From the NCBI RefSeq assembly GCF_003334405.1, contig NZ_QOWM01000001.1: 64,000 nucleotides of DNA. The stretch is one strand, 5' to 3'. The position numbers and the translations under genes were made by a program. This DNA is from Escherichia coli (GTDB lineage: Bacteria; Pseudomonadota; Gammaproteobacteria; Enterobacterales; Enterobacteriaceae). The notes under the pieces were generated by a model. That model did not search any database, had not been told where the DNA came from, and worked only from the letters and a program-made list of their open reading frames with translations. This document shows positions 30,950-34,983 of the stretch, piece after piece; the stretch's first letter is position 1; each line of letters begins with the position of its first letter.

Positions 30950-31609
30950 TTACTGCATCATCCCGGAGAATTTATTCTCCGGGTCCATCTCCAGCGCCAG
31001 TCCTGACAACTGCTTTCTGTTTTTAATGAGATACCCTTTCTTGCTTTTAATTAATAAACCGTCGTGAATGAACTGCGCGAGAACATATAAAAGATGTCGA
31101 TAAGAAACGCCTAAATACTCTGCCGCTTGCGTATGCTTTTCGTGATAAAGATCACCTTCCTGCGAGAGTAATATAAATGCTGCCAGGCGATTCACTAACG
31201 GAAATGATTGATTCTGAGTTAAAGAAACAATATTACGATAATTTTTATGACTTAAGGTGACGCAGAGTTTTCGTAAAAATAGCGTGTCGTTTAATAACAG
31301 CGGACGGTAATGTTTCATAGGGAGCGCAAGGCACCAACACTCTTCAATAGCCTGCACCGCACGCGGTTCATGGTCTTTATCGATTAACTCAATCTCGCCA
31401 ATAAAACAGGGGGCGGCAAAGAAATCGATCAGCGACACGCGACCATTAGCTAGCGTGGCGTAAAGCCTGGCGCGGCCTCGCGTCAGGTAAAACAGCCAGG
31501 ACGGCTGTTGCCCTTCCTGCACAATGTAGTCACGCGCTAAAAAATGAAACAGCCGCGTATCGGCTGAAACATCCGTTAAAAAGCAATCCTTAAACGCGGA
31601 TTCACTCAT
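30950..31609 (-). CDS. yeiL: CRP/FNR-family transcriptional regulator YeiL
   Basis: About 219 aa from MSESAFKD; cNMP-binding-like fold with a C-terminal HTH; the ORF track is 13 codons longer. Confidence 0.88.
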
Positions 31610-31777
31610 CAATTGCTGCTTAAGATCATTATTGTGGATTTCTTTCACGATGTTTATCCGCTATGAGATTTCTCATATTTAGCATACGTACGCTGTTGTT
31701 AAGATTCAATCATCGGCCCGGTCGAATTTTCTTTGCTGTAGAAAAAATAACGCAACTGGAAACAGAGGAAATAAACA

Positions 31778-32719
31778 ATGGAAAAGAGAAAAATTATTCT
31801 GGATTGTGATCCGGGTCATGATGATGCTATTGCTATAATGATGGCGGCGAAACATCCGGCAATAGATTTATTAGGCATCACTATTGTAGCGGGTAATCAG
31901 ACGCTTGATAAAACATTAATTAATGGCCTGAATGTTTGCCAGAAACTGGAGATTAATGTTCCGGTTTATGCGGGGATGCCGCAGCCCATTATGCGTCAAC
32001 AAATCGTTGCCGATAATATTCACGGTGAAACCGGACTGGATGGCCCGGTATTCGAGCCGCTGACCCGCCAGGCAGAAAGCACTCATGCGGTGAAATATAT
32101 CATTGATACCCTGATGGCAAGCGATGGCGATATCACTCTGGTGCCGGTTGGTCCGCTTTCAAATATCGCGGTGGCAATGCGTATGCAACCCGCGATCCTG
32201 CCCAAAATCCGTGAAATTGTGCTAATGGGCGGCGCTTACGGTACAGGCAACTTCACGCCATCTGCCGAGTTCAACATCTTTGCCGACCCGGAAGCCGCAC
32301 GCGTAGTGTTCACCTCCGGCGTTCCATTAGTGATGATGGGCCTCGATCTCACCAACCAGACCGTTTGCACCCCGGACGTGATTGCTCGGATGGAAAGGGC
32401 AGGCGGCCCCGCCGGAGAGCTGTTCAGCGACATCATGAACTTCACTCTCAAAACGCAGTTCGAAAACTACGGCCTTGCTGGCGGCCCGGTGCACGACGCC
32501 ACCTGCATCGGTTATCTGATTAACCCTGATGGCATTAAAACCCAGGAGATGTACGTCGAAGTGGACGTCAACAGTGGCCCTTGCTATGGGCGTACCGTCT
32601 GCGACGAGCTGGGCGTTCTTGGCAAGCCCGCCAATACCAAAGTCGGCATCACTATTGATACAGACTGGTTCTGGGGATTAGTCGAAGAGTGCGTGCGCGG
32701 CTACATCAAAACCCATTAA
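31778..32719 (+). CDS. rihB: Pyrimidine-specific ribonucleoside hydrolase
   Basis: 313-aa ORF with the N-terminal DCDPGHDDA nucleoside hydrolase signature. Confidence 0.93.
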
Positions 32720-32818: not shown

Positions 32819-34138
32819 ATGGATGTCATGAGAAGTGTTCTGGGAATGGTGGTATTGCTGACGATTGCGTTTTTACTGTCAGTAAACAAGAAGAAGATCA
32901 GCCTGCGTACCGTTGGCGCGGCGTTAGTGTTACAGGTCGTGATTGGCGGCATTATGCTTTGGTTACCGCCAGGGCGTTGGGTCGCTGAAAAAGTCGCTTT
33001 TGGCGTGCATAAAGTGATGGCGTACAGCGACGCGGGTAGCGCATTTATCTTCGGTTCTCTGGTCGGACCGAAAATGGATACCTTATTTGATGGTGCAGGA
33101 TTTATCTTTGGTTTCAGGGTGTTACCGGCAATTATCTTCGTCACCGCGCTGGTGAGTATTCTCTACTACATCGGTGTGATGGGGATTTTAATTCGAATTC
33201 TCGGCGGTATCTTCCAGAAAGCATTAAATATCAGCAAGATCGAGTCATTCGTCGCGGTCACCACCATTTTCCTCGGGCAAAACGAAATTCCGGCAATCGT
33301 CAAACCCTTTATCGATCGTCTGAATCGCAATGAATTATTTACAGCGATTTGTAGTGGCATGGCCTCGATTGCTGGTTCGACAATGATTGGTTACGCCGCA
33401 CTGGGCGTGCCTGTGGAATATCTGCTGGCGGCATCATTAATGGCGATCCCTGGCGGGATCTTGTTTGCCCGCCTGTTAAGCCCGGCAACGGAATCTTCGC
33501 AGGTTTCCTTTAATAACCTCTCTTTCACCGAAACACCGCCAAAAAGCATTATTGAAGCCGCTGCGACAGGGGCAATGACCGGGCTGAAAATCGCCGCAGG
33601 TGTGGCAACAGTGGTGATGGCATTTGTTGCAATAATTGCGTTGATTAACGGTATTATCGGCGGCGTTGGTGGCTGGTTTGGTTTTGAACATGCCTCGCTG
33701 GAGTCCATTTTAGGTTACCTGCTGGCTCCACTGGCGTGGGTGATGGGTGTGGACTGGAGTGATGCGAATCTTGCCGGGAGTTTGATTGGACAGAAACTGG
33801 CAATAAATGAATTTGTCGCTTATCTCAATTTCTCACCCTATCTGCAAACGGCTGGCACTCTCGATGCTAAAACTGTGGCGATTATTTCCTTCGCGTTGTG
33901 CGGTTTCGCTAACTTTGGTTCTATCGGGGTGGTGGTGGGGGCGTTTTCTGCGGTTGCGCCACACCGTGCGCCGGAAATCGCCCAGCTTGGTTTACGGGCG
34001 CTGTCGCGGAAACTGTATCCTTCAAGAAAGCTATATACCAGGCCCGCCATAAAACCATCGTCAGCACCAAAACTGTCTACTGTCGTATGCGCTGGCGCGG
34101 TCAGCAAAAATTGTTCTCCATCCTTTTCGCTGCAATAA
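32819..34138 (+). CDS. nupX: CNT-family nucleoside transporter NupX with an aberrant 3' end (last ~21 expected codons replaced by 44 unrelated codons); possibly a pseudogene
   Basis: Colinear with paralogue PsuT to residue 395 (...PEIAQLGLRAL), then diverges; the 3' extension is antisense to yeiI coding sequence. Confidence 0.8.
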   Translation: MDVMRSVLGMVVLLTIAFLLSVNKKKISLRTVGAALVLQVVIGGIMLWLPPGRWVAEKVAFGVHKVMAYSDAGSAFIFGSLVGPKMDTLFDGAGFIFGFRVLPAIIFVTALVSILYYIGVMGILIRILGGIFQKALNISKIESFVAVTTIFLGQNEIPAIVKPFIDRLNRNELFTAICSGMASIAGSTMIGYAALGVPVEYLLAASLMAIPGGILFARLLSPATESSQVSFNNLSFTETPPKSIIEAAATGAMTGLKIAAGVATVVMAFVAIIALINGIIGGVGGWFGFEHASLESILGYLLAPLAWVMGVDWSDANLAGSLIGQKLAINEFVAYLNFSPYLQTAGTLDAKTVAIISFALCGFANFGSIGVVVGAFSAVAPHRAPEIAQLGLRALSRKLYPSRKLYTRPAIKPSSAPKLSTVVCAGAVSKNCSPSFSLQ

Positions 34139-34983
34139 ACTGACTCATCGGGCAAATAAACAAACAGTTGCTGAACACCTTGCTGATGCAATGCATTCAC
34201 TGCGGTATTACGGTCAGCATCGCTGGTGATCGCCTGTCCCCATAAAATTTCCAGCTCCGGTAAAGTGGGTTTCAGGGTGTGAATATGCGCCAGCCAGTGT
34301 TTGATTTTGCCCGCTTTGAATTCTGAAACGGTATCGACAAACACCGGGATTTCATCAGCGAGGGTAAAGACCCATTCCAGCGCCTCGGCTGTCAGGTTGC
34401 AATCAGCCAGTACCACGCCCGCATGACGAAGTAAATCGCGCGACCCGTTCAGTAGTTGCGGTGTCAACTGTTCCAGCAGATGGGTATCGTTAATCGCCAG
34501 CACGGTTTGATCGTCTCGATTGGCAATTGCCAGATACGTCGATGTGCTTTGACCATGCAAACGAACGCAGCCGGAGACATTCACGCCGGCACGGCGCGTT
34601 TCTTCCAGGAGCATTTCGCCATAAAAGTCATCGCCAATCACTGAAAGCAAATGGACGTCACGGCCTAACAGCGCCAGATTGTGGGCGATGTTGCGTCCCA
34701 CGCCGCCCGCTGAGCAATGAATTGTACCGGGATGAGAAGCCGATTGCGGGTAACGGATATCCGCCATCCCGCGAATATCCATATTGATTGTCCCCACCAC
34801 TACGCAGTATTCCTGCTCGGTGAGAATGTAACCTTTGCCTTTAATCCGGCCTTTGCGCATTAAATCCATAATATGCGCCGCAACGCGCGAACGGCTGATT
34901 TGCAGCATGTCCGCAATTTCGTTCTGCTGAATCAGCGGGTTACGCCGTAAAATTGCAAGGATCTCCTTTTCCCGGTTATTCAT
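33838..34983 (-). CDS. yeiI: HTH plus PfkB-family sugar kinase YeiI with an aberrant 3' end; possibly a pseudogene
   Basis: N-terminal HTH and PfkB kinase core up to ...FGADDGFMAGLVYSFLEGYSFRDSA; the final ~52 codons are antisense to nupX and lack the conserved PfkB C-terminal segment. Confidence 0.8.
   Translation of the reverse strand: MNNREKEILAILRRNPLIQQNEIADMLQISRSRVAAHIMDLMRKGRIKGKGYILTEQEYCVVVGTINMDIRGMADIRYPQSASHPGTIHCSAGGVGRNIAHNLALLGRDVHLLSVIGDDFYGEMLLEETRRAGVNVSGCVRLHGQSTSTYLAIANRDDQTVLAINDTHLLEQLTPQLLNGSRDLLRHAGVVLADCNLTAEALEWVFTLADEIPVFVDTVSEFKAGKIKHWLAHIHTLKPTLPELEILWGQAITSDADRNTAVNALHQQGVQQLFVYLPDESVYCSEKDGEQFLLTAPAHTTVDSFGADDGFMAGLVYSFLEGYSFRDSARKPSWAISGARCGATAENAPTTTPIEPKLAKPHNAKEIIATVLASRVPAVCR

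Follow-up and report, generated by a model that had tools for sequence, protein, structure and literature searches.

A near-invariant palindrome upstream of yeiL as a predicted operator for the CRP/FNR-family regulator YeiL

Which DNA sequence does the regulator YeiL recognize, and what does it control from there? YeiL is the third CRP/FNR paralogue of Escherichia coli and among the few Fe-S transcription factors of this species (PMC7671543). Its DNA target and its regulon have so far been essentially undefined. The question is raised by a stretch of E. coli DNA of 64,000 nucleotides (hereafter the window), in which yeiL on the minus strand and rihB on the plus strand diverge from an intergenic region of 168 bp with a G+C content of 36%. 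The region harbors the palindrome TATGAGATTTCTCATA, which consists of two perfect 7-bp arms, TATGAGA and TCTCATA, and a 2-bp spacer, TT. A preliminary description of the locus had reported this element and had suggested that it may be an autoregulatory or shared operator for YeiL. The palindrome was found in the sequence exactly as described there, at a place that corresponds to 2255287-2255302 of MG1655, and also the gene names hold, as the yeiL/rihB region is 100% identical to K-12-type genomes in which both genes are annotated and as their products match the NCBIfam families NF007707 and NF007417.

Taken by itself, the palindrome is not conspicuous. For inverted repeats whose arms measure 7 bp or more and whose spacer is 0-4 nt, the window gives a count of 30, compared to 25 ± 7 in dinucleotide-preserving shuffles, and such a repeat arises in approximately 7.7% of the shuffles of the 168-bp intergenic region. 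Thus, by the statistics of both the window and the intergenic region the bare palindrome does not exceed chance, and the significance of the box comes only from its conservation across species.

A database search with YeiL identified orthologues in many Enterobacterales and, unexpectedly, also in Enterococcus, Lactobacillaceae, Clostridia and others, nearly all of them annotated with a length of about 232 aa. The annotation of K-12 MG1655 (NP_416668.3, 2255355-2256014) places the start at the ATG at position 31609 and predicts 219 aa. The 13 residues preceding this start (MKEIxNxxLKQQL) are conserved from E. coli and Citrobacter to Enterococcus. In E. coli, this N-terminal extension starts at the GTG at 31648, the 232-aa form is the one given in most RefSeq annotations of the species, and residues 1-226 of the long form match positions 1-226 of the NF007707 profile. 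Based on the conserved N-terminus and on the profile match from position 1 onward, the true start of yeiL is probably GTG 31648, so that the K-12 start would be set 39 nt (13 codons) too far downstream. This is relevant to all fusion and overexpression constructs designed from the K-12 annotation. The distances of the preliminary description, about 50 bp to yeiL and about 100 bp to rihB, are correct when counted to the annotated start codons (53 bp to the K-12 yeiL ATG and 101 bp to the rihB ATG at 31778), but the former refers to a codon that is probably not the start; the likely GTG is much closer, the box being located 14-29 nt 5' of it.

To define the conservation of the box, 80 orthologous yeiL loci were sampled from species-representative genomes, and the DNA 5' of each yeiL gene was compared. 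The motif TATGAGAWWTCTCAYA occurred in a single copy and in one orientation just 5' of yeiL in 79 of the 80 loci, the sole exception being a locus with only 13 bp of upstream DNA present. The loci carrying the box belong to Enterobacterales, Enterococcus, Lactobacillaceae, Lachnospiraceae, Clostridium and other Clostridia, Cohnella, Peribacillus, Erysipelotrichaceae, Sebaldella and Pelosinus, hence to at least three phyla, with YeiL identities to the E. coli protein down to 42-44%. Unlike the box, the remaining intergenic DNA could not be aligned across distant loci. In the 78 non-identical sites, 13 of the 16 positions reached an information content of 1.76-2.0 bits, compared to at most 0.66 bits in the immediate flanks; the two central bases were A or T, and position 15 was C or T. 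The resulting consensus, TATGAGA-WW-TCTCAYA, totals 29 bits across phyla and occurs in a defined promoter register. On this comparative evidence, the palindrome is a real regulatory site that has been kept almost letter for letter beside yeiL across phyla.

The motif is not used symmetrically. The left arm reads TATGA in all 78 sites and never TGTGAG, the right arm reads TCATA in 44 sites and TCACA in 34 (CTCACA in 34/78), and the centre AAAT is far more common than ATTT. This directional bias counts against the binding of a symmetric dimer as the full explanation and indicates that a strand-specific constraint acts in addition, for which the sequence of the start site, a more critical role of the rihB-proximal half-site, or a role at the RNA level are candidates. 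Covariation between the arms was determined for 32 representative sites. Pairs were broken in 23 cells, namely pair 1-16 in five sequences, pair 2-15 in 14 (A.C) and pair 6-11 in four, and not a single compensatory change was observed, indicating that selection acts on the sequence and not on a hairpin.

All loci were then anchored on the box, the promoter hexamers were scored, and transcription starts were predicted by taking the position 7 nt after each -10 element. The features obtained for E. coli are listed in Table 1.

Table 1. Predicted and annotated features of the yeiL-rihB region (window coordinates)
Feature	Position	Strand	Characteristics
YeiL box (16-bp palindrome), candidate operator	31662..31677	.	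Reading on the minus (yeiL) strand TATGAGAAATCTCATA; family consensus TATGAGAWWTCTCAYA
yeiL -10, TATGCT (predicted)	31681..31686	minus	TAnnnT, followed after 2-3 nt by the box, in 66/73 scorable loci
yeiL -35, TTGAAT (predicted), 17-bp spacer	31704..31709	minus	TTGAAT or TTGCAT with 17-bp spacer in 57/73 loci
rihB -10, TAAGAT (predicted), 4/6 match	31700..31705	plus	Shares positions with the yeiL -35 of the other strand
yeiL transcription start, G (predicted)	31674	minus	7 nt after the -10; box at -3 to +13, centre at +5.5
rihB transcription start, A (predicted)	31712	plus	7 nt after TAAGAT; box centre at -42.5; 66-nt leader to ATG 31778
yeiL coding sequence, conserved 232-aa form, GTG start (probable)	30950..31648	minus	Open reading frame, N-terminal conservation, NCBIfam NF007707
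rihB (pyrimidine ribonucleoside hydrolase)	31778..32719	plus	NCBIfam NF007417 (ribosylpyrimidine nucleosidase), 727 bits

The -10 element assigned to yeiL appears in the alignments as TATGCT, TATACT, TACACT or TATAAT, and the T at relative position -30, which belongs to the -35 element, reaches 1.73 bits. On the opposite strand, the divergent -10 element reads TATGAT in other Enterobacterales and is a perfect TATAAT in most Firmicutes, making the E. coli TAAGAT the weakest of the set. The upstream edge of this element is located 29.5 bp (31 loci) or 30.5 bp (40 loci, the latter being the E. coli position) from the box centre, in total in 71 of 79 loci. Relative to the predicted starts, the box is accordingly centred at about +4.5/+5.5 for yeiL and at -41.5/-42.5 for the divergent gene (71/79), and the whole arrangement forms a compact bidirectional promoter of about 60 bp, whose predicted yeiL and rihB starts are about 38 bp apart. 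Between the box and the start codon of yeiL lie anywhere from 10 to about 75 nt, whereas the register of the box with the divergent -10 element is fixed within 1 bp, indicating a constraint at the level of DNA. In the supplements of Kim et al. (2012), no start-site entry was found near the locus or for yeiL or rihB. The ATG within the box was also considered as the start of a leaderless upstream open reading frame and was rejected, as it has no Shine-Dalgarno sequence and its A follows the -10 element by only 3-4 nt. A separate observation concerns the Lactobacillaceae, in which a second conserved dyad, GTAAGCCCTTAC, occurs inside TGTAAGCCCTTACTTAC just past the yeiL -35 element and within the predicted rihB leader (at about 3921-3932 in locus L028, and at the same place in L029, L031, L034, L036-L038, L041, L047, L048 and L063). 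This dyad is absent from E. coli and could be a second operator or a family-specific RNA element.

A position mostly within the transcript, with the box at the predicted -3 to +13, would also be compatible with a function in RNA, as a 5'-terminal hairpin or an RNA-binding site in the first ~13 nt of the yeiL mRNA that controls its stability or translation. In the predicted fold of the E. coli leader, the palindrome does form a stem of 6 bp (MFE -7.4 kcal/mol, z = -1.96), and the fixed orientation of the motif and its strand-biased centre would suit such an element. However, the arms show none of the expected compensatory pairs, the A.C mismatch at pair 2-15 in 14 of 32 sequences is not rescued, and variants compatible with G.U pairing do not occur, although a stem in RNA would accept them. 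It is also the divergent -10 element, and not the start codon, to which the box keeps its distance, and an Rfam search yielded noise-level matches only and no family. We therefore regard an RNA element as improbable.

Still less probable is that the box serves as operator for a different regulator, CRP or FNR, instead of YeiL. Its 5-N6-5 layout is that of CRP sites, the half-site TATGA resembles TGTGA, and the right arm reads TCACA in 34 of 78 sites; in addition, Anjum et al. reportedly found in 2000 that FNR represses yeiL. Against both candidates, the motif is equally conserved in Enterococcus, Lactobacillaceae and Clostridia, Firmicutes which to our knowledge lack an E. coli-type CRP, and YeiL is the only protein that was found together with the box in every locus examined. 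The G at position 2 of TGTGA, which is needed by CRP, never occurs in the left arm (TATGA in 78/78), and with regard to FNR the box reads ATGAG-N4-CTCAT and not TTGAT-N4-ATCAA. The box is thus neither a CRP site proper (TGTGA-N6-TCACA) nor an FNR site proper (TTGAT half-sites with a 4-bp spacer). In the accessible part of a CRP Footprint-seq table, the only entry for yeiL is an intragenic site and not the box (preprint PMC12871828). This in vitro CRP footprint, designated '(yeiL)' at MG1655 position 2255813, corresponds to CGTGATAAAGATCACC inside the yeiL coding sequence at window positions 31141-31156.

An FNR-like sequence, TTGAATCTTAACAA, is located elsewhere in the region, on the minus strand at 31696-31709, and matches TTGAT-N4-ATCAA in eight of ten positions. 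It overlies the predicted yeiL -35 and rihB -10 elements, and it was rejected as the main element of the region since these coinciding hexamers account for its conservation; it may be the site behind the reported repression of yeiL by FNR. The original yeiL paper is said to have proposed an FNR-like sequence as the YeiL site, and it may be this TTGAATCTTAACAA, and not the palindrome, that is recorded as the YeiL site in RegulonDB. The database holds one YeiL site, at the yeiL promoter, and one interaction or regulated gene (PMC9308461), hence the same regulator and the same promoter region as for the box.

Further copies of the box were searched for at several scales. The 64-kb window contains no second box even when three mismatches are allowed, and none was found within ±4 kb of the 79 loci except for two matches with two mismatches each. 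In metagenomes, the exact 16-mer gave 120 matches, 21 of which are located directly 5' of a yeiL gene and two more of which resemble truncated yeiL promoters; 56 fall into coding sequence. No recurrent gene context other than yeiL was found among the 120 matches, and the remainder looks like background. As no second box was found, the YeiL regulon may be limited to this one locus, or it may include further sites of more degenerate sequence. On about a dozen metagenome contigs, several of them from human gut and with about 61% G+C (L084, L087, L092, L095, L122, L128, L159, L165, L170, L178 and L201), the 16-mer caps a hairpin that resembles an intrinsic terminator, AAAAAACTCCGTATGAGAAATCTCATACGGAGTTTTTTT, and no yeiL gene lies in the vicinity. 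These copies seem to be coincidental and unrelated to the box, and they show that the 16-mer by itself is not diagnostic.

That the box is a chance palindrome, or plain core-promoter sequence without a dedicated binding factor, could appeal to the unremarkable counts in the window and in the shuffled intergenic regions and to the metagenome copies in coding sequence and at terminator tops, but this least credible of the alternatives is practically excluded by the near-invariance of the 16 bp across phyla, where the flanks and even the promoter hexamers drift, and we know of no core-promoter element that is a 16-bp dyad centred at +5.

The reading that we consider probable is that the palindrome is a YeiL operator which would activate rihB(-nupX) and repress yeiL, with the binder, the starts and the signs of regulation inferred from sequence comparison. 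The operator proposed in the preliminary description is thus supported by comparative evidence, with YeiL as the predicted binder: the box follows yeiL across phyla, it has a CRP-type layout, the regulator has a conserved recognition helix, and the site is placed with respect to two promoters. The box may be read as 5-N6-5 (TATGA-GAWWTC-TCAYA) or as 5-N4-5 (ATGAG-AWWT-CTCAT) and, as in operators of the CRP/FNR family, a two-fold symmetric site of 14-16 bp is linked to a regulator with cNMP-binding and Crp-type helix-turn-helix domains. In YeiL, Pfam places these domains at residues 35-119 (cNMP_binding, PF00027) and 154-215 (HTH_Crp_2, PF13545), and the alignment of orthologues shows four invariant cysteines. 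The most conserved 12-residue window among the 80 orthologues (176-191) is the recognition helix of HTH_Crp_2, and a near-invariant helix matching an invariant DNA target fits YeiL as the binder. BLASTP aligned YeiL and CRP in the sensor domain alone, and their recognition helices were compared residue by residue by manual inference. A search for a solved structure of YeiL or of a YeiL-DNA complex found none.

According to the proposed mechanism, a YeiL dimer would bind the box inside the bidirectional promoter, where the -35 element of yeiL overlaps the -10 element of rihB on the other strand. Centred at about +5 of yeiL, the dimer would cover the start site and lower yeiL transcription, resulting in negative feedback. 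The same dimer would be positioned at -41.5/-42.5 of the divergent promoter, which is the class II position, and would there recruit RNA polymerase to a promoter without a -35 element of its own; YeiL would thereby switch on rihB(-nupX), and activation of rihB would be coupled to negative feedback on yeiL. E. coli rihB has been reported to be physiologically silent (PMC2898832), which together with the weak -10 element TAAGAT fits an activator-dependent promoter. As this element is the weakest of the set, E. coli rihB should depend strongly on its activator.

Well-studied systems provide parallels to this arrangement. In class II CRP- and FNR-dependent promoters, such as galP1 for CRP and the FNR-activated anaerobic promoters, the activator dimer is centred at -41.5. 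The yeiL locus resembles these in combining a regulator with cNMP_binding and HTH_Crp_2 domains with a 16-bp 5-N6-5 dyad, whose centre lies 41.5 or 42.5 bp before the predicted divergent start, at the usual place of a -35 element. It differs in the half-site, which is TATGAGA and not TGTGA (CRP) or TTGAT (FNR), and in that 40 of the 71 loci, including E. coli, have the box at -42.5, with both the start and the activation being predicted here. With regard to the feedback on yeiL, an FNR site overlaps the transcription start of fnr in fnr autorepression, and crp is autoregulated by way of a CRP-activated divergent promoter. The yeiL promoter would likewise have a site for its own regulator over or next to +1, and, as in crp, the bound protein would be in a position to activate an overlapping divergent promoter in competition with that of the regulator. 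Unlike in fnr and crp, a single site would serve both roles at yeiL, and the divergent transcript would be a real target gene and not a regulatory RNA. A further difference to fnr autorepression is that yeiL was reportedly autoregulated positively, and not negatively, in the yeiL-lacZ fusions of Anjum, Green and Guest from 2000. A site over +1 does not predict such positive autoregulation, and this discrepancy stands; indirect effects, or the design of the fusion relative to the mis-set start codon, could underlie it.

The genes that the box travels with further define its role. In 51 of the 80 loci, the gene divergent to yeiL encodes an orthologue of RihB (69-99% identity to E. coli RihB), and in the Enterobacterales rihB is followed by nupX, which in the window begins at 32819. 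In the other 29 loci, the divergent gene is not rihB and encodes a methyltransferase-like protein, an MFS transporter, a membrane protein or others; the box is kept there as well, and is thus linked to yeiL rather than rihB. Seventeen of the more distant loci, with YeiL identities of about 43-54% (L050, L052, L053, L056, L057, L060, L062, L064, L067, L068, L072-L076, L078 and L079) have as divergent gene one for a class I SAM-methyltransferase-like protein of about 210 aa, whose best NCBIfam match is the DVU_1556 family at 74 bits, which is below the cut-off. The box and the promoter architecture are unchanged in these loci, suggesting that the YeiL family there controls something other than nucleoside hydrolysis.

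The divergent rihB-yeiL pair is common to Enterobacterales and to Firmicutes or Fusobacteria (L019, L023-L051, L063 and L065, with the rihB homologue at about 2950-3900 and yeiL from 4001). In the Firmicutes and Fusobacteria loci, RihB shares 69-86% identity with its E. coli counterpart, reaching 86% in Hungatella hathewayi and 83% in 'Copromonas', and is better conserved than YeiL (50-64%), which points to horizontal transfer of the whole module. Somewhat more tentatively than the operator itself, and without giving it even odds, we propose that yeiL, the box and the back-to-back promoter of about 60 bp may form a self-contained cassette that moves horizontally between phyla, throttling yeiL and placing the divergent gene under control of YeiL.

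An independent observation was made downstream of rihB. Compared to MG1655, the window is without 280 bp (about 2252674-2252953), with the junction at about 33994-34009, where a 16-bp repeat is located. What is missing comprises the 3'-terminal 59 bp of nupX, approximately 115 bp from the end of yeiI and the DNA between both genes, so that the two reading frames run into each other's antisense strand and the open reading frames of nupX (32819-34138, plus strand) and yeiI (33838-34983, minus strand) overlap by 300 bp. Nine of 12 sampled E. coli genomes cover the whole query in a split match, whose pieces are separated by about 230-280 bp more than in the window. The gap is due to either a deletion specific to the strain or an artefact of the assembly.

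In the searchable literature, the 13-mers ATGAGAAATCTCA and TGAGATTTCTCAT occur in no paper, and among the publications on YeiL and rihB found there, none describes a YeiL box, its conservation across phyla or a class II register with rihB. YeiL as such has been known; what is new is a defined, predicted operator for this CRP/FNR-family regulator.

If the cassette reading is true, the box would provide the YeiL branch of the CRP/FNR family with its first defined recognition sequence, and the divergent gene under control of YeiL would be rihB in most lineages and a methyltransferase-like or transporter gene elsewhere. The box predicts the binder, the place and sign of its action and the responding gene, and it provides a matrix for scanning whole genomes for targets. 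The consensus thereby makes both the function of YeiL and the silence of rihB testable, and in E. coli YeiL would, on the same reading, be the missing activator of the cryptic rihB-nupX operon.
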